Positions 4,201 to 61,368 of a DNA stretch of 64,000 bases are shown here, piece after piece. Both the position numbers and the translations under genes were made by a program. Below the pieces are notes generated by a model. That model made no database searches, had not been told where the DNA came from, and was given only the letters and a program-made list of their open reading frames with translations. The DNA is from a phage, in the sequence record NC_042307.1, one strand, 5' to 3'. Within the stretch, counting starts at the first letter, position 1. Every line of letters starts with the position of its first letter.

Positions 4201-4445
4201 TATTTAATTCCCATGTAACGTTTGAGATATGTGATGAAGTCTTCTGTTGTATGTTTTAGGCTACCCTGAACCACAAACAACTTTAAAGCCTCACGCTGTA
4301 ATTTAAGAGCAGCTAACTCACCACGTAATTTTGTTAAATCTTCCGCTAGTTCCCTAGCTCTGCGCATAATAGCAAATGATACAAATGTTACAATAAATAA
4401 CATAACTGCTAAAATAATTACTATGATCTCCATATTAACATCCAA
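4200..4445 (-). CDS. small membrane protein (TM + coiled coil)
   Basis: Hydrophobic N-terminus 'IIVIILAVMLFIVTFVSFAI'. Confidence 0.4.
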   Translation of the reverse strand: MDVNMEIIVIILAVMLFIVTFVSFAIMRRARELAEDLTKLRGELAALKLQREALKLFVVQGSLKHTTEDFITYLKRYMGIK

Positions 4446-4704
4446 CTCTTATTATATATTTGGGCATGTTCTACTAATTCATTTATTGATGTAGAATTAT
4501 CGTAGATACCCTCTAGTAAACGTTTTCTGTCAAATTTATCAACTAAATACTCTGCGCCATTTATTACTACCCTATACAGCTTCTGGAACTAAGGGGTGTT
4601 TGTTTGGTATTGGGCGACTGCTTAAGTTTATTTCGTTTTTACCCCATTCTGTTTTAAATAGTTTGTTACTAAGTGCTGCTAGTGGGTTTGACCATACAAT
4701 ATAG

Positions 4705-5151
4705 CTACTCACTATTTATCTCCATTCTTAGCTTTGAAAACTTATTATACCAAACTATATGATTATCGTCAATTACAAATTTATGGTAACATGCTGGTAC
4801 GGTATAAGTTCCATAATCAGTGACACGCTGCACAACCTTGTGTGCGCACAGTCGACATCCATGCCCTTCTAAATGAGATCTAGCAGTTTGCCAGTAATAA
4901 CCCTTATGGTCTGGACAATAGATCTCGACTTGCTGTTGCATTGTCTTATAATTTACACGCTCATATCCGAAGAAAGCTCCATGAGCTGCAATGGCTTTCT
5001 TGATAAATATAAGGTTTAGTGCTTCTTGTTGAAAGTCGGGGTGTAGCTGCTTAATCTTAGTTCTATTAATAGACCCATCCGATTTGATGAATCTATTTAT
5101 TGGAAAGTTATTAGCTTCCTCGATTAATAATTCATTTACTTTCTCTCTCAT
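4705..5151 (-). CDS. zinc-ribbon protein ('CPDHKGYYW...GHGCRLC')
   Basis: Start ATG 5151 chosen to abut stop of upstream ORF; Cys/His motif like the repeats of the T5orf172-type proteins. Confidence 0.4.
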   Translation of the reverse strand: MREKVNELLIEEANNFPINRFIKSDGSINRTKIKQLHPDFQQEALNLIFIKKAIAAHGAFFGYERVNYKTMQQQVEIYCPDHKGYYWQTARSHLEGHGCRLCAHKVVQRVTDYGTYTVPACYHKFVIDDNHIVWYNKFSKLRMEINSE

Positions 5152-12349: not shown

Positions 12350-12763
12350 TTAAACTAGTTCGACATGACCGCCATCATAGGTACCACGTTTTATTTCATC
12401 GTGATAGTCTCCCGAAGCATTCCAATCAGCACCAAAACGAAGTTTAATGCCTAGTTCTTTACCAGCTTGTTCAAAAGCCTTTTTAACTGCCCAAAATGCT
12501 TCTAAGTCATTCCAGTCAATTTTGCCATTAATATATGGAGCAAAATCGATAGCATCTCCAGTAATATGTTTGCTTTTACTAGGATCTTTTAGAAATGAAG
12601 TACCATTAGCAATATTTTGGGCACTTTGTGCTACTGTACGAATACCTTGCACGATTGTGAAATCGTACGGAGATAATTCTAAAGCCCTACGAGCTACTTT
12701 TTGTAGTTCGGGCTTAACGGTAGCTAATTGTTTTTCACTATTTTTACCAAATTTAAAACTCAT
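12350..12763 (-). CDS. lys: endolysin, L-alanyl-D-glutamate peptidase (T5 Lys-like, 137 aa)
   Basis: Size and sequence recall of T5 endolysin; follows holin gene. Confidence 0.7.
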   Translation of the reverse strand: MSFKFGKNSEKQLATVKPELQKVARRALELSPYDFTIVQGIRTVAQSAQNIANGTSFLKDPSKSKHITGDAIDFAPYINGKIDWNDLEAFWAVKKAFEQAGKELGIKLRFGADWNASGDYHDEIKRGTYDGGHVELV

Positions 12764-21698: not shown

Positions 21699-21883
21699 TA
21701 GCTCTCCTGTTTGGTAGTTAGTAGTGGATTTGAACCACTGTAGTCGCTCCGTATGAAGGAGGTGCATAACCACTCTGCCAACTAACTATTATGTTTTACT
21801 AGACTAAGTAAGTATTCTTTGTACTCTTTAGACCAATTAGCTTTTTTAAACTTTCCTGGACGCATAGTCTTAATTCCTAAATT

Positions 21884-21960
21884 TGGTACTCCGGGAGGGA
21901 TTTAAACCCCCGATCTCTCGGTTATCAGCCGAGTGCTTTAGATCGCTAAGCTACCGAAGT
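21884..21960 (-). tRNA. tRNA-Ile (anticodon GAU)
   Basis: Hand-folded cloverleaf; CCA encoded. Confidence 0.6.
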
Positions 21961-21975
21961 ATTAAAATATTTACA

Positions 21976-22266
21976 TCACACACTTTCTAAGTAAGAAGTA
22001 TAATGGAATTTAGTTTCTCCAGTCTTATCTACTTCTACCTCAGTTCGTGGTACTTGACGAACTACACCATGAATCATCTTATAGCGAATGCCTTTAGCTG
22101 GTTCATGATCTTTTGGAAATACTTGTTTAACCGTTACTACTTTATATCCTTCACGCGGTGTTAACACTACTACTTGATCACCCTCTTTGATTTTCCAGGA
22201 GGGTGGAAATTCATAGGTATATCTTTGACCACCAGTTTGGAATACTACAGAAAGATAACGTTTCAT
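21976..22266 (-). CDS. hypothetical protein (96 aa)
   Basis: ORF with upstream promoter-like sequence. Confidence 0.4.
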   Translation of the reverse strand: MKRYLSVVFQTGGQRYTYEFPPSWKIKEGDQVVVLTPREGYKVVTVKQVFPKDHEPAKGIRYKMIHGVVRQVPRTEVEVDKTGETKFHYTSYLESV

Positions 22267-22340
22267 TTGGTTTCCCTCTCATTAATTTATATAATTATTA
22301 TAACAAGAAATAAGAGAGAATGCAAATGAATTTTTAAATT

Positions 22341-22415
22341 TGGTGCTCCCACCAGGAATCGAACCCGGTTCAGATGCTTACAAGGCAACTGCATCGCCAG
22401 CAATGCTTTAGGAGC
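22341..22415 (-). tRNA. tRNA-Thr (anticodon UGU), one mismatch in anticodon stem
   Basis: Hand-folded; CCA encoded. Confidence 0.5.
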
Positions 22416-22435
22416 GATGATCCCGTTATTTCAAC

Positions 22436-22600
22436 GGGATTTCTTTTTCAATAACAGGAGACTTATCAGTCATAACTGTCATAGCCAACTGCTGAAGAAA
22501 CTCGAAAGTTAGCTTTAAACGTTCTTCACCTAATTCAATCTCAACGTATTTCTTTTGCTTGTCAACCTTTAATTTTAGGTTATCAGCCATCTTCTGATTC
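22436..22600 (-). CDS. small hypothetical protein (54 aa, below track cutoff)
   Basis: ATG 22600 to TAA 22436; 'MADNLKLKVDKQKKYVEIEL...'. Confidence 0.3.
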
Positions 22601-22804
22601 TCGTTGCTCGGCTACTGCTAGCCAGTCTGGTAAAAGAAACTTAGTACGAAACTCTTCATAAGATTCTTCTGGATAAAAGCTAAAACCTCCTTTCTCATCA
22701 TTCAAGATAACAGAGCCGTCAGTTTGTTCATACGCTCGATATGTTTCTCCAATAATGATAACTCGCTTATCAGTACTTTTATTACGAAACTCAAAAACGT
22801 GCAT
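22583..22804 (-). CDS. hypothetical protein (73 aa)
   Basis: ORF. Confidence 0.35.
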   Translation of the reverse strand: MHVFEFRNKSTDKRVIIIGETYRAYEQTDGSVILNDEKGGFSFYPEESYEEFRTKFLLPDWLAVAEQRESEDG

Positions 22805-22818
22805 TGTGTTTCCTTATT

Positions 22819-22893
22819 TGGTGCGGGATACGAGAGTCGAACTCGTGTTTACTGGTTGGAAGCCAGTTATTCTAGCCACTGAACTAATCACGC
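22819..22893 (-). tRNA. tRNA-Gly (anticodon UCC)
   Basis: Hand-folded; CCA encoded. Confidence 0.6.
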
Positions 22894-22900
22894 ATTAATT

Positions 22901-22984
22901 TGGCTGGAGAAGGAGGATTCGAACCTACGTACCTTCCGGTTATGAGCCGGGTGCTCATACCATATGGGCTTGAGAACCAGAATT
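22901..22984 (-). tRNA. tRNA-like element, anticodon loop 'CUCAUAA' (CAU), acceptor stem noncanonical
   Basis: T-arm and CCA present; 5' acceptor does not pair. Confidence 0.3.
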
Positions 22985-23073
22985 TGGCGGAAGAAGTGGG
23001 AATCGAACCCACAAGGCTATATTTCAAACCGACAGATTAGCAATCTGCTGCAAAACCGTTCTGCTATTTTTCC
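22985..23073 (-). tRNA. tRNA-Ser (anticodon GCU), class II with long variable arm
   Basis: Hand-folded; CCA encoded. Confidence 0.55.
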
Positions 23074-23093
23074 GGATTTATAAATATATTATA

Positions 23094-23612
23094 TTAGAAA
23101 TTTAGCTTCATGGCAAGAAAATTTTTCAAGTTTTCGGTAGACATCTCATCCACATCTATAGGAGAAACAAACCCATTTAATTGTTTAGCAAACTTTTCGC
23201 CAGCAGGATCATTATCCCCAACAGCTACCAATTTAAAAGGTAGTAATTTCAATTGCTTTAATAGCGGTTTTCCTGGAGAAGAACCCAACATTGCTAGAGC
23301 AGGATACCCAGCATTATGTAATGCTACAGCCTTAAATACAGATTCAGCAATTAATACTACTTTTTCATCCCCATTGAGAGTTTCTAGTCCCCATACACAC
23401 TGTGTAGTAGAATAAGTAAAATATCTAGCTTCAAAGGGGCACTTACCATGACCTTTTGGAGCAGAAGGATTATAAGTCTGATAGCCTCTCAACATTCCAG
23501 AGAAGTCATACAATGGGACTGTTAGCCATCCTTCTGGGCTTAACCAGCAGTGATATTTATCTGTATCAAACCCTCTAGATAAGAGATGTTCTGTTAGTTC
23601 ATCAATAGTCAT
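23094..23612 (-). CDS. Toprim-like domain protein
   Basis: 'VVLIAESVFKAVA...VAVGDNDPAGEKFA'; ATG 23612 with GAGAGG RBS. Confidence 0.4.
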   Translation of the reverse strand: MTIDELTEHLLSRGFDTDKYHCWLSPEGWLTVPLYDFSGMLRGYQTYNPSAPKGHGKCPFEARYFTYSTTQCVWGLETLNGDEKVVLIAESVFKAVALHNAGYPALAMLGSSPGKPLLKQLKLLPFKLVAVGDNDPAGEKFAKQLNGFVSPIDVDEMSTENLKNFLAMKLNF

Positions 23613-23831
23613 ACTAGATTCCTCTCTCAAATTTATAAATATATTATGCAGAGAATTTAGCATTCAAGCAATTGAATTTTTTAACTTTTTAGAGGAAAAT
23701 CACAGGATGCTTAAGGGTAGCAGGTAAGTGGGTAGACCCCAAAATTGTTATCCCCACTTGATTTTCAATGTGATATAGTGTAAAGTATTTGTCATAGCTG
23801 AGTGACCAAAGAGACACACTTATCCTCTACC

Positions 23832-23873
23832 TTAAAACAGAAAAGCCCTGCGCTCTCCAGGGAACACAGGGCT
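23832..23873 (-). terminator. Rho-independent terminator
   Basis: Stem AGCCCTG/CAGGGCT, 'tttctgtttt' in minus sense. Confidence 0.55.
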
Positions 23874-23897
23874 TACTTCGAATATTACGTGTGGGAA

Positions 23898-24845
23898 TTA
23901 CTTGTTACGCATATCCATAATCATCTGGCCATCGTAACCAGTGCCAACTACTGTTTGAGGTACACCGCCTTGATATTTCTGAGCACGAATCATTTCAACT
24001 TCTAGTTGTTTCCAGCGAATCATCTCAGGAGTAATAGTACGTTGCAGAGCGGCGTTAGCTTCGGCTTCCTTCTTAGCTGCGTACAGTTTAGCATCTGCAT
24101 CACGTTCGTTTGCAATAGCTTGGTTGTTACGAGCTTCACGATCTGCTTCTGCTTGTTTAACCTTCTGCTGTGCTTCTTGTTCAACACGAGCCAACTCAGC
24201 TTTCGCAGCATTAACTTGTTCCTCACGAACTTTGGTATTCTGTACCTGTTCCATGATTACAGGCGGCAAAGTAATATCCTGAAGGAACACTTGCTTAACT
24301 GTGTAACCATAAGGGCGTGCATACTCTTCAACTTCCTGTTGAATTGCGGTTTGTAATTGAGCCTGGATTTTAGCATCAAACAAATCTTGTGCTTTAGGAA
24401 CAGACTTACCGAACTCACGAATAGTGGACAGTAATTTTTCAGTTACATATTTGTCTAATGCTTGATCCTGGGTACCTGCGTTAATACGGTTAATCGGTGC
24501 CTTAGAACCATCAAACTGCAACATAACAGTCAGGTCAACAGTGGATTTAAACTTATCCTGACTAGGAACCTGAAGTTTATCTAATTTTACAGCAATGTCT
24601 TTTGTACTAAAAGTATCGAAAGATGCAAATGGGTTTACAAGATGAAAACCAGGTAATACAGGATTAGGGTCTACTTTACCCAGAAATGTTTGGGTTTTAA
24701 CCGTACCATCAGAAACAATAGTATATGAATTAAAAGCTAGGATTAAACCTGCTAAACCAACTACAGCACCAATACCCCAACGTTTAATAGTGCGGATTAC
24801 TTTTTGCTCAGAAGTCAGTTCTTTCATATTTTTAGTATTAAACAT
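23898..24845 (-). CDS. SPFH/band-7 (prohibitin/HflC-like) membrane protein
   Basis: N-terminal TM, long Ala/Glu/Gln-rich coiled coil; AAGGA RBS. Confidence 0.55.
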   Translation of the reverse strand: MFNTKNMKELTSEQKVIRTIKRWGIGAVVGLAGLILAFNSYTIVSDGTVKTQTFLGKVDPNPVLPGFHLVNPFASFDTFSTKDIAVKLDKLQVPSQDKFKSTVDLTVMLQFDGSKAPINRINAGTQDQALDKYVTEKLLSTIREFGKSVPKAQDLFDAKIQAQLQTAIQQEVEEYARPYGYTVKQVFLQDITLPPVIMEQVQNTKVREEQVNAAKAELARVEQEAQQKVKQAEADREARNNQAIANERDADAKLYAAKKEAEANAALQRTITPEMIRWKQLEVEMIRAQKYQGGVPQTVVGTGYDGQMIMDMRNK

Positions 24846-24879
24846 ATATTTCCTTTGTTTTAGTTACAGTTAATAAAAT

Positions 24880-24954
24880 TGGCCGAGGTGACAGGATTCG
24901 AACCTGCATAAAGGAATTTAGAAGACTCCTGCCTCTCCCTTAGACTACACCCCG
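24880..24954 (-). tRNA. tRNA-Arg (anticodon UCU)
   Basis: Hand-folded; CCA encoded. Confidence 0.55.
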
Positions 24955-32943: not shown

Positions 32944-33783
32944 TTAAGAGGACATTTTAGCTTTAAGAGCTGGATGAGGATCGTACCCCTCTAAATGGAA
33001 TGACCAAGCTGCTGTATTATTTTCTAATAAATCGTAAAGATCTATAAACTCTGGCATTACTAGAGTTGGCAGAGGGCGTGGCTTGCGTTTTACCTGTTCT
33101 TCTACCTGTTCCATGTGGTCATTATAGATATGAGTATCACCGCCACTAAAGATAAGGTAACGAGGTTTTAATCCTGTCAGTTTTGCTAATATATGCGTTA
33201 ATAAAGCATAACTAGCAATATTGAAAGGTAAACCGAGGAAACAATCCACAGAGCGTTGTGCCCATTTAAGATCTAGGTATCCATCGTTACTTACATAGCA
33301 CTGGAAGCCGTAGTGACAAGGTGGTAATGCCATTTTATCAAGTTCAGCTACGTTCCACGCAGAAACTAGATGTCTGCGGCCATGAGGATTATTCTTGAGT
33401 CCTTCAATAAGCTCTAGAATCTGATCTCGCCCACCAAAGTTACGCCACTGTTTACCATATACTGGTCCTAGATTACCCTTATCATACCCCATACTTATAG
33501 CTTGGTCTTCATAATTTGGAGTCCAGATGGTCCACTGTCCTTCGTCACGCCCAAATGTGAATACACGTAGATCATGAAGATTTGTGGAACCAGACAAGAA
33601 CCATAATAGTTCTCCTACTACGGATTTCCAAGCTAGACGTTTGGTAGTGACGGCAGGAAACCCATCACGTAGGTCGAACTTAGCATAGGAATCAAAAATT
33701 GAAACTGTGCCTGTTCCTGTACGGTCATTACGGGGTTCACCCAGTAAAATTACATCTGTCAAAATTTTTAAGTATTGTTGCAT
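32944..33783 (-). CDS. thyA: thymidylate synthase
   Basis: 'MQQYLKILTDVILLGEPRNDRTGTGT', 'LPPCHYGFQ'. Confidence 0.8.
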   Translation of the reverse strand: MQQYLKILTDVILLGEPRNDRTGTGTVSIFDSYAKFDLRDGFPAVTTKRLAWKSVVGELLWFLSGSTNLHDLRVFTFGRDEGQWTIWTPNYEDQAISMGYDKGNLGPVYGKQWRNFGGRDQILELIEGLKNNPHGRRHLVSAWNVAELDKMALPPCHYGFQCYVSNDGYLDLKWAQRSVDCFLGLPFNIASYALLTHILAKLTGLKPRYLIFSGGDTHIYNDHMEQVEEQVKRKPRPLPTLVMPEFIDLYDLLENNTAAWSFHLEGYDPHPALKAKMSS

Positions 33784-34316
33784 TAATAAGTAACCAATTC
33801 CTGTACAAATCGCAGGCTGTTATCACTGTTTGCGCCAACTGCATAGACTAATCGAGTGGATTCATAGTTATAATCCAGTATCATACTATCTAGGTGTATA
33901 TCTGCCTCTAGCTTCTGTTCACTAAAGATTGTAGATACAAAAGCACTTTCAATATGCCCATGTTGATACATTTCTAGAAGAAGATTAGCTCCACCTAGAA
34001 CTACTGTTTGCTGATCTTTTAGAAAAGTAGGTAATGTATCACCTATCATTGATATGGGAGTGTAAATATCATGTGTAATATCGTCTGGCAGTGGACGATC
34101 AGCACGAATAAATAGGTCAGAAGCTCCAATCATACGTTCCCTAACGGCATATGGAAGAGCTAAATAAGTACCTGCCCCAATAATAATATTATCAGGATTT
34201 AGTACATCTAATTGTGAATAAAAAGCATCTAGTTCTTCTTTAAAAGAACCCCAGGGGAGCTTACCTCGGAGGCCGAACTCCCCATTCGGCCCAACTGCAT
34301 ACATTGCTGTAATCAT
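33783..34316 (-). CDS. frd: dihydrofolate reductase
   Basis: 'MITAMYAVGPNGEFGLRGKLPW'; position next to thyA. Confidence 0.7.
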   Translation of the reverse strand: MITAMYAVGPNGEFGLRGKLPWGSFKEELDAFYSQLDVLNPDNIIIGAGTYLALPYAVRERMIGASDLFIRADRPLPDDITHDIYTPISMIGDTLPTFLKDQQTVVLGGANLLLEMYQHGHIESAFVSTIFSEQKLEADIHLDSMILDYNYESTRLVYAVGANSDNSLRFVQELVTY

Positions 34317-35459
34317 AGGAAGTCTCCAAATTCATTACCCAAATCTTTCAAGGTATCAGTAGAGGTCTCAGTTACCTGACCTACACGGTAGGCTGCACCA
34401 ATCTGGATTTCTTGTGGGGCAGGCTGTAGAGAAGTAGTATCCAACCAGTTCATGATCCACGGAATAGGGTTTTTAGTGATTACTGGTAAGTGACTAGGCC
34501 ATTCTACACCAATGTGCATAAATGCGTTACGCCCCACAAAGTACAAGTATTCTTCTAGAAGTTCTGCATTCAAACCAATCAGACTACGACCTTTGAAGAT
34601 GAAATGACCCCATTCAATTTCAGTTTTAAGAGTTTTCAGGAGTTGTGCTGGTGCTTTAGCCACTGCTTCATCTACCAGATCTTTGTCAAACTGCTGGAAC
34701 ATAATCTGGATGATTGTTTTAGACATCTGAGTATGTAGGGCTTCATCTTTAGCAATCAATTGCAGATTTTTAGCAATACCTTGCAGAATATCGTTCTCTG
34801 CTAACGCAAAGGTACATGCAAAGGATGCGTAGAACTGCATTGCTTCCAGACCGTAGATTGCAAAATAAGCATCTAACAGTTTAGCCTGAGTTTCACGCTT
34901 AACCTCAGGGAACTCAGTTTCTGGATATGTATTGTCACCACGATGATCACGTACTGCGATGAAATACTGACCTAACTGGTACAGTTCATCGAACAGCTCA
35001 ACAGAATCAGCGATACGTGCGAATGCTTCTTGGTTTTTGGTTACAGAATCAATAAATTCTGCCGGATCAGTCAGCACATTACGAATAATATTACTATAAG
35101 CACGACTATGCAGGTCTTCAAAGTAGCTCCACTGCTTGAGCATACCTTCTAGTTCTGGACGACTTACAAGCGGCATAATAGCTGCTTCAGGCGCTCGACT
35201 GATAAAGGAATCAGTTTGGGTCTGCCATGCTAAGTTCAGGAGTGTGATTTCCTGAATTTCACGTGGGAGATTGGGCCATTGTTTCTTATCTGCTTCCAGA
35301 CTGATTTCAGTTTCAGTCCAAAATTGAGAGCGTTGCAGAAGTGCCAGACGTTCTAGTTCTGGATGTGCTACACGTACATAATCTGCGATACCTAGAGAAT
35401 CGCCCCAGGAAAAGATCAGCGTTAGTATGATCCCAATTCAGGTTTAGTAAAGTAGTCAT
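34313..35459 (-). CDS. nrdB: ribonucleotide reductase small subunit NrdB, interrupted by apparent +1 frameshift near 35401-35404
   Basis: Track ORF 34313..35176 carries 'FYASFACTFALAE', 'DEALH'; N-terminal homology continues upstream in same frame to 35437, but RBS+ATG at 35459 is in another frame. Confidence 0.6.
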
Positions 35460-35594
35460 TGATTTTCCTCTTTCTCACTATTTCAGGAATATTATAGCAA
35501 ATCAGGTAGCGATTAGCAGGTAAAATTATAAACTATCAAGCTCCAATAGTTTCATATCGCGCCACTCTATAGCATCCTCAAGTTCTTGGAATGT

Positions 35595-36017
35595 TTAAGT
35601 ATATTTTACACCTTTACGGGCTATCTGTACCTGGTAAGATCCGCTAGCTTTTGGATGAATATTTTTAATACCTAACTTATTATCTTTATGCGCCCCGACA
35701 TTCTTTCCGTTACTGAATCTATCAGAAGCTACTAGGTTAATAGCTCTATTATCATGTCGTATTCTATTGTCGTGGTCTACTTCAGGTGGCAGATACCCAT
35801 GAATTTTAGCAAAGATTACCCTATGTGCTAAGTAGGGGTATCCTTTAATATTTAATACTATATATCCTGTAGATTTATCTAAGGAGCCTGCTGGTTTTCC
35901 GGCATATTTGGTATTAAATGTTTTATTATCTCTAGGTCTATGAGTTAATATTCCAGTATATGGATCATAATCAAATAATTTAGCTACCTCTAGATGATCT
36001 TCTAATGTTTTTGACAT
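35595..36017 (-). CDS. HNH homing endonuclease inserted between nrdA and nrdB
   Basis: 'PEVDHDNRIRHDNRAINL'; ATG 36017. Confidence 0.6.
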   Translation of the reverse strand: MSKTLEDHLEVAKLFDYDPYTGILTHRPRDNKTFNTKYAGKPAGSLDKSTGYIVLNIKGYPYLAHRVIFAKIHGYLPPEVDHDNRIRHDNRAINLVASDRFSNGKNVGAHKDNKLGIKNIHPKASGSYQVQIARKGVKYT

Positions 36018-36082
36018 AATTATAATTTCCAACCAATTAGTATAAAAAATAAGAGGGTTATAATTAACCCTCTTTACTAGTT

Positions 36083-38410
36083 TTATAAGGTACAGCCACC
36101 TGAAGAACATCCTGTAGTTTCTCCAGCTCCTCCACCATTCGCAGTGTTAAAGTTAGCATAATACCAGGTTTTTATACCATACTTAACCGCAGTCATAAAG
36201 TCACGAACTACTACTGGGCCAGGGATGATTTCATTCTCGAATTTAGAGTAATCATAATACATCTGGAAACTTGATGACTGACTCAAGAATTTTTGGTAAA
36301 CGGCGTTCCATTTGATCCACTCAGTGCGATCAATATCATAAGCTAGTTTATAGCTCATTAACGTTTCCCAGTCGGTTGCACCTGGAGCAATTGCAATTAC
36401 TTTATTTACTGCACTACCTTTGATAGATACAATCTTACGAGGTGGTTCGATAGAGTTAGTAACACCTAACAGAACAGAAGAACTTTCTCCCGGCATCTGA
36501 GCAGTCAGAACAGAGTTACGCATACCATATTTCAGAATATCTGCACGCAGAGACTCCCAATCCATTTCTAGACCTACGGATACCAGTTCATCAACAGTTT
36601 TCTTGTACGTGTCGATTACCAGAGTTCCTTTAGATGGTTTAGTACGATCGAACCATTCACATGCACCTTGCTCTTTGGCTAGACGTACAGAGGCTTTATG
36701 CAGGAAGTAGGACAATTTTTCAGCTTCACGATGAATCCAGTTACGAGCCTCAATACCTTCATAAGCCAGACCTTCTGCTGCCATTGCACCTGCTGCGTTC
36801 ATCAGACCAATACCAACGTTACGACGTTTCTTAGCCGTATATTCCATAGTTGGGAACGGGTAATCCTGAATTTCAATGATGGTATCAACAAATTTCAGAA
36901 GAATATAGCAAGTCTTTTCCCACTCAGCCAGAGATTCCATGCGTCCTAATACAACACCACCTAAGTTACACAGAGATACTTCCCCAATATCCTCCGGCTT
37001 CATTTGATCGAGTTGTTCTTTTGTTTTATACAGTTCCGTGATATGATGGAACGGGCGTGTAGGCTGAGTAATTTCAACACAAAGGTTGGTCATACGAATC
37101 GGGTCAAGGAAGTTACCATGACGGTTAGATTCACCAATGTGATGAGCATACATACGCCCTGTTTCCATACGGATACGTAACCAAGTATCTAGGATTTCTT
37201 TTGCAGAGATTCTAGGAGCTGCTGGAATTGTTTTTCCTTCGTGGTCGGTCTTTGTAAGAGATGCCACACGTTTCTCCGCTGCCACGTAGATTTCTTCAAA
37301 CTTAGCCTCATCTTCACCATAAAACGCTTCATGAACTTCTGGTGCGTAGAAGTAGGACATTAGCGTAATATCTTCGTTTTTCAGGTAACGTTTTAACAGA
37401 AGGTTGTTAAAGCTCAGAGAATAATCCATCTTATCGATTTTATTCTCGTCTGTAGCACGTTGCTGCTTAACCTGCATCAACTGAATGATTTCAGGATCGA
37501 AGTATGGATAAGACACAGTAGCAGAACCGCCACGGGTTTGCTGAGTGTTAGCTTTTACTGAACGGTCAATGTGTCGATAATATGGCAGTTTTCCGGAATG
37601 CGGGAATGCCCCATTTCGCACCGGATCAGCAATTGATCGGCTTTCAAGATGATACCCGATTCCCGCTCTGGCTGCGACCATTTTGAAGACGATGTGCTCG
37701 GCTGTGTCGATTGAATCCAACGTGTCAGTGGAATCCACGAGGCAGCAACTAGCAAATCCACGGTCACTAGAACGCAAACCAACCAGTGGCGGCGTAGGAA
37801 CGTTGATTTTGTGGAGCGACATTGCATTGTAGAGATCGATTGCATCTAGAATTGTCCAGTTGGGTTGAGATAACATCGCCATTGCCATGCCCATATAGGC
37901 AAATTGCGGGGTTTCGTAAATTTCACCAGTGGCTATATTACGACGGGAATATTTATCAAAGAACTGTTTCAGTCCACCACTAGTAAAAAGACGGTCACGA
38001 TCGTGGTCTATAACCTGATTCAGAGCTTCAAATTGCTCATCGGTAATCCATGCACTCATGTCTTCCCATGCACCTACACTAACCATATGATCGTGGAAGA
38101 AGCGTAGAGAAGGTGGTTCGAAGGAATCATAAAGGCGTTTACGCATCTGCGCAAGACGTAATTCCTTTGCTGGCACGTCGTATGCTGGATTATCTTTAAT
38201 AAGACTTTCGGCAGCTTTAATTAACGCATCCATCAGAGTATCGGAATCTACAACCCCTTTAGGCAGAGTTTTTTGAGCAGCCATAGTAATGGCAGACCAA
38301 CTTACATCAACTGTTTTGCAACCATACTCTGCCCAACCATTGAGTTTTTCAGGAGCAAAGTCTTCTACAGTACCGTCACGTTTAATTACTTTTTCAATGC
38401 GATGGCTCAT
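36083..38410 (-). CDS. nrdA: ribonucleotide reductase large subunit NrdA
   Basis: ATP-cone N-terminus, 'CNLG', C-terminal Cys pair; ATG 38410 with AAGGA RBS. Confidence 0.8.
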   Translation of the reverse strand: MSHRIEKVIKRDGTVEDFAPEKLNGWAEYGCKTVDVSWSAITMAAQKTLPKGVVDSDTLMDALIKAAESLIKDNPAYDVPAKELRLAQMRKRLYDSFEPPSLRFFHDHMVSVGAWEDMSAWITDEQFEALNQVIDHDRDRLFTSGGLKQFFDKYSRRNIATGEIYETPQFAYMGMAMAMLSQPNWTILDAIDLYNAMSLHKINVPTPPLVGLRSSDRGFASCCLVDSTDTLDSIDTAEHIVFKMVAARAGIGYHLESRSIADPVRNGAFPHSGKLPYYRHIDRSVKANTQQTRGGSATVSYPYFDPEIIQLMQVKQQRATDENKIDKMDYSLSFNNLLLKRYLKNEDITLMSYFYAPEVHEAFYGEDEAKFEEIYVAAEKRVASLTKTDHEGKTIPAAPRISAKEILDTWLRIRMETGRMYAHHIGESNRHGNFLDPIRMTNLCVEITQPTRPFHHITELYKTKEQLDQMKPEDIGEVSLCNLGGVVLGRMESLAEWEKTCYILLKFVDTIIEIQDYPFPTMEYTAKKRRNVGIGLMNAAGAMAAEGLAYEGIEARNWIHREAEKLSYFLHKASVRLAKEQGACEWFDRTKPSKGTLVIDTYKKTVDELVSVGLEMDWESLRADILKYGMRNSVLTAQMPGESSSVLLGVTNSIEPPRKIVSIKGSAVNKVIAIAPGATDWETLMSYKLAYDIDRTEWIKWNAVYQKFLSQSSSFQMYYDYSKFENEIIPGPVVVRDFMTAVKYGIKTWYYANFNTANGGGAGETTGCSSGGCTL

Positions 38411-38554
38411 TTGGTTTTCCTTTTTATAGTTATCAGGATTTAGGAAATAGTTTACTTTATTCTCAGTCATTTGGCAAATAAAATTTTCTGATAGAAAAGG
38501 CCCGAGTATTTTCATACCCAGGCCTCCTGTGTTGTCAGTCTAGTTTTTGGCCAC

Positions 38555-39800: not shown

Positions 39801-40670
39801 GTGGAATGCCCGAAAAAATTAACTCAAGAAGAAGTAGATAAATGCCTAGCCGAGCGTGGTTTTACTATGGTGGATAAGCCATATCAAAATTCTAGGTATA
39901 GGCATACGTATCAGTGTGAATACGGTCACCAATGGACAGCTAAATTTGACGCTATTAGGAATGGAAAGACCAATTGTCCTACTTGCTCTATTAGTAGCCG
40001 TAAACTAGATATTGATAAAATTAATACTATATTACAGGACAGAGGTATTACATTGTTGAACGGCTATAAAAATAGTGCCGATATAAATACTAAATTTAGG
40101 TGTGTTTGTGGTCATGAGTGGGCTACTACACTTAATAGTATAATTAATAGAGGTAGTGGCTGCCCATCTTGTGCTGCTAATAAACAGAAACTTAGTGTTA
40201 ATACTATAAATGATCGTCTTGCTGCCAGAAATATCAGAATAGTGGGTGAGTATAGTAATGCGAATACTAAGACCGCCTTTCTTTGTGGTGCAGGGCATAG
40301 GTGGGAAGCTACTCCAGGGTCTGTATTAAGGGGGAACGGTTGTCCTTACTGTAGTTATAGAGATTTAGAAAGTACTAGGATATATGTTATGTATAGCCCC
40401 TCACATGGGGTTAAAATAGGTAGGTCTAACAATCCAGAGCGTAGACTTCTACATATTAGATCTAGTAGCCACCTTATTGATTTGGAAATAATTAAAGTAT
40501 TTGAAATTGGGGAATATAGTAGTGCAGTTCGAATAGAAAAATTAGCCCATAACTACTTTAAAGAGCAGAATTGCCAGTACAAAGATTTTGACGGCGCTAC
40601 GGAATTCTTCAATATTGAACCAAAAGTAGCTATAAAGTTTATCGAGGAAATAATCAATGACAGAGAATGA
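39801..40670 (+). CDS. T5orf172/GIY-YIG-like endonuclease with four zinc-ribbon repeats (GTG start)
   Basis: Repeated 'C.C.H.W....GCP.C'; 'RIYVMYSPSHGVKIGRS'. Confidence 0.55.
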   Translation: MECPKKLTQEEVDKCLAERGFTMVDKPYQNSRYRHTYQCEYGHQWTAKFDAIRNGKTNCPTCSISSRKLDIDKINTILQDRGITLLNGYKNSADINTKFRCVCGHEWATTLNSIINRGSGCPSCAANKQKLSVNTINDRLAARNIRIVGEYSNANTKTAFLCGAGHRWEATPGSVLRGNGCPYCSYRDLESTRIYVMYSPSHGVKIGRSNNPERRLLHIRSSSHLIDLEIIKVFEIGEYSSAVRIEKLAHNYFKEQNCQYKDFDGATEFFNIEPKVAIKFIEEIINDRE

Positions 40671-49580: not shown

Positions 49581-49792
49581 AAAATGGGAAACAAGGAAGT
49601 TTCCAGTAAAAGAACGTAAAGTTCCTGTTTATGATACTTCGGAGAAGCTATGTAGGGTGGTTCCTGCTAGACTAGCATCCATAAATGGCATAGGCGCATG
49701 GTTGCTAAAGCAGAGAAAGCAAAGCATATCATTACGTATATCTTTTGAGTTAGACCAAATCTATAGAGAATTGGGAGAATTGATTAAAGAAA

Positions 49793-51818: not shown

Positions 51819-52116
51819 ATGACCAAAGCTGAAATTATCGCACAATGTGAAAAATTTGGTGAGTTTTATCTTCATTACGAGAAACTTCGTCAGAAAGGAA
51901 CCACGTACCTTCAGGGTACGATGGAATTTGATCCAGCTCAGGATAAATACCTGGCTGAGCGTATTAAACAGTGAACGTATTCGTAAAGCGAAAGATGATG
52001 AAATCCTTGTCTTCTCTCGTACTAATGATAGCTTCCGTTTTATTCCTGTCGAGAAAGTTCGTCGTGTGACTAGCCTCCAATCAGAGTTAGATCGTGCTTC
52101 TCCAGTAGGCCGATAA
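51819..52116 (+). pseudogene. small gene apparently split by frameshift near 51960-51975
   Basis: ATG 51819 ORF (51 aa) ends at TGA; protein-like sequence continues in +1 frame to 52116. Confidence 0.3.
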
Positions 52117-60878: not shown

Positions 60879-61368
60879 TTTCAAATTGCCCGTCTATGCG
60901 TTACGGGCGTTTGTATCAATTGAGCAGGAAGGTGATTATTCCATAATTACAACAAGATATAATAAATATGTGTTAGATAACAGGGAGTTGCCTGGCACAT
61001 TCTCTCAACGTAGGTTAGCCTTATTTGAGAAGCGGAAAGAATTACCGTACAAGCTCTATCCTATTAGAGGTAGAATATCAATGTTGTCTCAATTAGTTGG
61101 GTCAAAGCGTAGCCAATTTATAGATTCTGATGGAAATCTTATTAACTGGAAGAAAACTACGTTCTATGATGTTGTCACCGCTAAAGTTTTGCATTCAGCT
61201 AGAATTTATAACGGAAAATACCAATGCTATGTAGCTAAAGTTCCATATCCATTTGTATTATCCTATGTTCCAGCTTATATAAGCTATATTCTGGTAAATA
61301 ATAGCCCTGTTATTTATCAAGTCCATCAAGAGGAGCCTGAAATTCCTAGACTTAGAATAAAATTATGA
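60871..61368 (+). CDS. hypothetical protein (165 aa)
   Basis: ORF. Confidence 0.45.
   Translation: MLNFKLPVYALRAFVSIEQEGDYSIITTRYNKYVLDNRELPGTFSQRRLALFEKRKELPYKLYPIRGRISMLSQLVGSKRSQFIDSDGNLINWKKTTFYDVVTAKVLHSARIYNGKYQCYVAKVPYPFVLSYVPAYISYILVNNSPVIYQVHQEEPEIPRLRIKL

Follow-up and report, generated by a model that had tools for sequence, protein, structure and literature searches.

The nrdB gene of phage H8 is divided between two frames

In the genome sequence deposited for H8, a T5-like phage, nrdB lies on the minus strand in two reading frames joined at CTGGGGCGAT, which corresponds to CCCC at positions 35403-35406 of the plus strand. The question raised by this locus is whether the phage changes frame at this site in order to make the beta subunit of its ribonucleotide reductase (RNR), has lost the subunit through mutation, or carries an intact gene that the record misrepresents. 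A preliminary description of this DNA had named all three causes and leaned, in its title, towards read-through. We examined the gene within a window of 64,000 nucleotides (sequence record NC_042307.1), to which all positions refer. H8 is reportedly a FepA/TonB-dependent T5-like phage, the genome of which is said to have been published by Rabsch et al. in 2007, a reference that PMC3326045 cites.

The elements of nrdB are the following.

35463..35470, minus strand: Shine-Dalgarno-like GAGGAAAA, 3 nt (GAGG 7 nt) 5' of the nrdB ATG
35459-35457, minus strand: nrdB start codon ATG, read from the sequence
35403..35459, minus strand: nrdB codons 1-19, MTTLLNLNWDHTNADLFLG, in frame 0, with the last codon in the GGGG run
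35403..35406, minus strand: the lesion, GGGG on the coding strand, a 1-nt insertion where relatives carry GGG and then C or A
35313..35402, minus strand: out-of-frame tail RFSRYRR...SILD of the frame-0 ORF, ending at TGA 35315-35313
34313..35402, minus strand: nrdB codons 20-381 in the +1 frame, DSLGIADY...GDFL, ending at TGA 34315-34313
34313..35176, minus strand: longest ORF with a conventional start in the downstream frame, beginning at Met95 (ATG 35176) and 287 aa in length
nrdB, minus strand: DLFLGDSLGIADY, the residue stretch that would span the frame junction in a full-length NrdB (43-44 kDa) read in a single frame

The ribosome-binding site and the ATG at 35459 had been proposed to give the N-terminus of NrdB, and we found that residues 1-19 of frame 0 match the intact relatives exactly, while GAGGAAAA is unchanged in 5/5 aligned relatives. 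After codon 19 the frame-0 ORF continues with RFSRYRRLCTCSTSRTRTSGTSATLSILD, 29 residues unrelated to NrdB, to a total of 48 aa; a single uninterrupted nrdB reading frame is therefore not present, as frame 0 ends after 48 codons. Translation in the +1 frame gave (W)GDSLGIADY...GNEFGDFL, with the 362 NrdB codons that the preliminary description had counted. The frames do meet at 'cgCCCCagg', as it had reported; its range of 35401-35406 covers 'cgCCCC', the C4 run itself being 35403-35406. From ATG to stop, nrdB measures 1147 nt in the H8 window and 1146 nt in relatives, and deletion of one G produces a continuous NrdB of 381 aa, in agreement with the earlier figure of about 380. RefSeq lists the two pieces of the H8 gene separately, as YP_009966037.1 (48 aa, a singleton cluster) and YP_009966036.1 (287 aa), both identified by exact-sequence match.

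Runs of C4/G4 are not unusual in the 64-kb window (200 observed against 212 expected). The match to NrdB at this site is not due to chance, since the 150 nt around it are the same as in phage oldekolle except for the extra G. We also considered, and rejected, an alternative start for the downstream frame, because none of the codons from the upstream TGA to Met95 is an ATG, GTG or TTG; those that occur are ATT, ATC, ATA and CTG, far from the Shine-Dalgarno sequence.

Gene neighbourhood of nrdB

The gene belongs to a nucleotide-metabolism block composed of nrdA, an HNH gene, nrdB, frd and thyA, all on the minus strand. The neighbours of nrdB are as follows.

36083..38515, minus strand: nrdA, RNR large subunit, intact; translation probably begins within the listed ORF, at MSHRIEK...
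35595..36110, minus strand: gene for a free-standing HNH homing endonuclease, separating nrdA from nrdB (Pfam HNH_3, E = 8e-9)
33783..34316, minus strand: frd, dihydrofolate reductase, next after nrdB, the stop codon of which overlaps the frd start in ATGA
32944-33783, minus strand: thyA, after frd, from the ORF list and the annotations of relatives

An HNH gene is also found between nrdA and nrdB in phages FFH1 and Kenya-K44, in which nrdB is intact, as well as in T5; it is absent from oldekolle and JLBYU43. In the window, the listed HNH ORF overlaps the nrdA stop and its start is probably the internal MSKTLEDH. The nrdA gene of the window is ~2.4 kb long and has no intein; those of Shivani and SHSML-45 are 3243 nt long with an annotated intein splice site, and the alignment of nrdA with positions 36973-40215 of L005 breaks at window 37535/37539.

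The repaired product is a predicted class Ia RNR beta subunit

After deletion of one G, the nrdB product matched Pfam PF00268 (Ribonuc_red_sm) over residues 28-319 at 125.4 bits (cut-off 33.6, E = 3.7e-36). A phmmer search aligned its residues 6-371 with residues 7-371 of E. coli NrdB (1jpr/1piy, E ~1e-62), pairing residues 6-19 with residues 7-20 of the E. coli protein, and this end-to-end alignment with the solved E. coli NrdB indicates that the first 19 codons specify the true N-terminus. The iron ligands and radical tyrosine of E. coli NrdB are D84, E115, H118, Y122, E204, E238 and H241, and the roles of Trp48 and of the iron ligand Asp84 are established. Reading the repaired protein on its sequence and on the alignment, we found D83 in QTDSF and E114-x-x-H117...Y121 in FEDLHSRAY, with further ligands in GLEAMQFY (the E) and KDEALH (the E-x-x-H). 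Judged by these signatures, the repaired product is predicted to be the beta subunit (NrdB) of a class Ia ribonucleotide reductase. The 287-aa ORF starting at Met95 lacks residues 1-94, including Trp47 and the iron ligand Asp83, and the deposited sequence, if translated as it stands with no change of frame, cannot yield an active beta subunit.

The absence of Asp83 and Trp47 from the Met95 ORF means that the allele, if real, would be a true null, which agrees with a reading in which the extra G is a very recent slippage mutation that knocked out the RNR beta subunit in the sequenced H8 stock. The nrdB products would then be limited to the 48-aa peptide and, perhaps, a 287-aa fragment without activity, and the phage would depend on its anaerobic NrdD and on the NrdAB of its host. 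In laboratory culture such a loss could be neutral; alternatively, it could be selected because it blunts defences that sense the dNTP surge driven by the phage. There is precedent for the latter, as escapers of the DRT9 defence isolated from T5 and Bas37 carry frameshift or missense mutations in nrdA and, in Bas37, also in nrdB; these mutants arise readily, form plaques and plate well (PMC12483538). Because T5-like phages with a frameshifted nrdA or nrdB are viable, an nrdB null would be tolerated and selectable, making a real mutation plausible. A short homopolymer, such as the one that holds the insertion, is also a natural place for slippage. Weighing these points with those presented below, we consider a knock-out by a real extra G possible but rather unlikely.

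The G4 allele is private to the H8 record

Among phage records, 441 match the 1311-nt nrdB region at 80-97% identity, and almost all of these are Tequintavirus; the region has no match in E. coli complete genomes or PLSDB plasmids. In 4/4 annotated relatives nrdB is a single 1146-nt ORF, and a five-way alignment shows the 150 nt around the site to be almost invariant, with one extra G in the window only: oldekolle reads CTGGGCGAT and the other aligned relatives CTGGGAGAT. All relatives read at this position (26/26) have GGG with C or A as the next base, and every complete one has an nrdB of 381 codons. Matches to a 65-nt probe with the site at its centre came from 84 phage records, none of them at 100% (0/84), the best 25 being 64/65 matches with one G fewer. 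A 21-mer containing GGGG had 0 exact matches in IMG/VR, JGI metagenome contigs and GTDB genomes, while the in-frame 20-mer (the GGG version) was found in 6 IMG/VR genomes. The GGGG allele is private to the H8 record. It had been suggested that homologous phages with the same CCCC and an intact nrdB would speak against a lesion in this gene; none was seen among the homologues examined, all of which have CCC and then a different base. An intron, intein or inserted element was rejected, as the flanks are contiguous with those of relatives and the difference is exactly one base.

The comparison with T5-family NrdB that had been proposed as a check gave 381/381 identity between the repaired protein and the NrdB proteins of oldekolle (QIN99323.1), a chee24-like phage and VSe12. 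At the nucleotide level the repaired gene differs from these three at 33, 37 and 41 positions, respectively, all of them synonymous. The lineage has been under full purifying selection in the repaired nrdB frame. With 0 nonsynonymous changes among 33-41 differences, the insertion, if real, must be extremely recent. Selection on nrdB is thus not relaxed, and this argues against a knock-out, as does the fact that the allele occurs in no other record or contig searched.

Recoding at the G4 run

A programmed or exploited +1 frameshift would have the ribosome read CUG GGG, slip by one base (either by movement of the peptidyl-tRNA-Gly from GGG to GGC or by decoding of GGGG as a quadruplet) and continue on GAU, giving full-length NrdB. 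This possibility draws on the frames meeting exactly at the G4 run with both parts intact, and on the frame-0 A-site codon, CGA, which is not a favoured codon in E. coli. In addition, mutant glycine tRNAs of the sufD type, which are classical suppressors, can read GGGG as one codon. Nevertheless, the A-site codon specifies Arg and is not a stop. Moreover, programmed frameshift sites are conserved among homologues, and this one is not: every homologue examined is single-frame and the allele occurs only in the H8 record.

We found no Shine-Dalgarno-like element in the 20 nt upstream of the shift site (AACGCTGATCTTTTCCTG) and no AGGAGG-like element in the upstream sequence GCTGATCTTTTCCTG. The 141 nt of RNA around the site are no more stably folded than shuffled sequence (z = -0.72), and no Rfam match was obtained there at E <= 1. 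The sole tRNA-Gly (UCC) of the window, at 22819-22893, has an ordinary 7-nt anticodon loop, so that no quadruplet decoder of GGGG is visible in the window. Transcriptional slippage was rejected because it needs a long run, typically of 7-9 or more A/T, and the run here, G4, is too short.

A programmed +1 frameshift of the prfB type is not supported by the conservation of the site or by the search for stimulators, and we regard recoding of any kind at this run as extremely improbable. The leaning of the preliminary description towards read-through is therefore not borne out, given relatives that all have GGG and a single-frame nrdB, and a site with no +1 stimulators. The programmed frameshift drops out of its three proposed causes, as the site is unconserved, whereas sequencing error and inactivating mutation both stand, the former being favoured.

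Three further private insertions in the window

For a screen of frameshifts, the window was aligned to Shivani (53.6 kb alignable), SHSML-45 and JLBYU43. Three further private 1-nt insertions, which had not figured in the earlier observation on nrdB, break conserved genes at ~4582, 39811 and 51970.

4424-4712, minus strand, site ~4581-4582: 96-aa hypothetical gene, homologue of Shivani gp22; AGCT has become AGCTT, leaving a 46-aa stub
39806-40667, plus strand, site 39809-39811: 287-aa endonuclease-like gene; ATGCCG has become ATGCCCG right after the start, giving MPEKINSRRSR and a stop
51819-52116, plus strand, site 51970: 98-aa hypothetical gene; AAACG has become AAACAG, leaving a 51-aa stub, an exact match to RefSeq YP_009966059.1 of H8

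Deletion of one T in the first gene gave a protein 91/96 identical to its Shivani homologue. The repaired second gene is 287/287 identical to Shivani gp89, which relatives annotate as a GIY-YIG or homing endonuclease, and the repaired third is 97/98 identical to Shivani gp102. The insertion at 51970 does not extend a homopolymer. With probes of 76-77 nt over ~4582, 39811 and 51970, no 100% match was obtained among 26, 380 and 38 records, respectively; in the best 8 records listed per site, the match fell one base short of the probe length. Including nrdB, the window has 4 frameshifts relative to Shivani over 53.6 kb, or ~0.75 per 10 kb, as compared with 0 net frameshifts over 65.5 kb in the control pair, Shivani against SHSML-45. 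That three unrelated genes of the window have the same kind of defect also weighs against recoding at nrdB.

Other flags raised by the screen, such as 25484, 26549, 30486/31035 and most comparisons with JLBYU43, were due to wrong-strand ORFs, alignment edges or gene termini and were not counted. Compensating indel pairs in coding sequence were seen relative to Shivani and SHSML-45 at 49677-49688 (4+4 nt), 61015-61021 (1+1) and 12554-12566 (1+1); their members are 6-13 nt apart and the frame is regained after a few codons, which may reflect real local divergence or paired errors.

Positions 1-130 hold an unusual cluster of G/C homopolymers (GGGGGG at 18-23, CCCCCC at 65-70 and CCCCCCCCC at 87-95) in a phage that is otherwise AT-rich. 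The first ~430 nt do not align to Shivani, and the cluster may adjoin the terminal-repeat boundary or the injection-stop region of T5-like genomes. ARAGORN identified six tRNA genes at 21712-24954 on the minus strand (Met, Ile, Thr, Gly-UCC, Ser and Arg-UCU); the equivalent stretch of JLBYU43 has more than 20, indicating that the tRNA region of H8 is reduced, in the manner of del-1.

Origin of the extra base

We favour a technical origin: the extra G in the GGG run at codon 19 would be an error of base calling or assembly in the H8 record, and the phage would use a single frame to make a normal RNR beta subunit of class Ia, 381 aa long. The nrdB insertion is private to the record and lies in a homopolymer; taking it out gives back a conserved ORF. 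The strongest pointer to an error process acting across the record is the presence of the three further private insertions in conserved genes, the same kind of indel being absent from the control pair. Four private single-base insertions in the same direction, each of which can be removed to restore a conserved protein, favour error, and we conclude that the nrdB extra base probably arose in this way. The finishing standard of the mid-2000s was 1 error per 10 kb, and the indel rate of the window is close to that ceiling. A literature search for comments on the H8 frameshifts found none.

Some observations point the other way. The four disrupted genes (nrdB, the endonuclease-like gene and two small ORFs) are plausibly all dispensable, which fits a knock-out, and by a rough estimate the chance that random errors would miss the large replication genes is ~0.2-0.3. 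Furthermore, the insertion at 51970 lies outside any homopolymer extension, and the viability of nrdA and nrdB frameshift mutants (PMC12483538) counts on the same side. On the other hand, a real origin would need four independent +1 insertions to have been fixed in one stock, and the control pair shows none. That H8 is an RNR-beta knock-out arisen outside selection experiments, perhaps leaky through rare +1 slippage at GGG-G and with the other three losses also real, seems to us unlikely.

If the error reading holds, the splitting of at least 4 genes in the RefSeq H8 record is artificial. The split fragments pass into protein databases and into comparative analyses of T5-like phages, and the value of the observation is mainly one of housekeeping; the finding is accurate but ordinary and opens no new mechanism. 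Should the base prove real, H8 would be a T5-like phage with a null RNR-beta allele, which would have a modest bearing on the dispensability of phage RNR and on escape from dNTP-sensing defences; the nrdA/nrdB losses by which T5-like phages evade DRT9 and other dNTP-linked defences would then have an example from outside screens.

Comparison with known systems

The prfB gene, which encodes RF2, resembles H8 nrdB in that an early +1 shift is needed for the full-length protein. It differs in its conserved CUU UGA C, which places a stop codon in the A site, and in its Shine-Dalgarno-like stimulator 3 nt upstream; the H8 site has neither and is not conserved.

A second comparison is with the RNR genes in pieces of Aeromonas phage Aeh1, in which nrdA is split by mobE (Friedrich et al. 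2007, cited in PMC3326045). Aeh1 shares with H8 an RNR gene that stands beside a free-standing HNH endonuclease and appears as two ORFs. However, the Aeh1 pieces reportedly cover the whole protein and assemble, and it is nrdA that is split, by an inserted gene; in H8 a 1-nt frameshift splits nrdB, and the pieces with canonical starts cover only residues 1-19 and 95-381, omitting residues 20-94 with an iron ligand. We therefore rejected an arrangement of the Aeh1 type.

The DRT9-selected nrdA/nrdB escapers of T5 and Bas37 share with a putative H8 mutant the loss of the phage class Ia RNR through one gene in a viable phage, but they were selected and confirmed by re-sequencing (PMC12483538), whereas the H8 lesion is known from the deposited sequence alone.

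The closest likeness is to the intact nrdB of Tequintavirus (oldekolle, chee24, VSe12 and T5), with which H8 shares the gene order nrdA, (HNH), nrdB, frd, thyA, the ribosome-binding site, the start codon and, once one G is removed, all 381 of 381 residues of the protein. The difference lies at codons 19-20, where these phages have GGG followed by C or A in a gene of 1146 nt and the H8 window has GGGG in one of 1147 nt.
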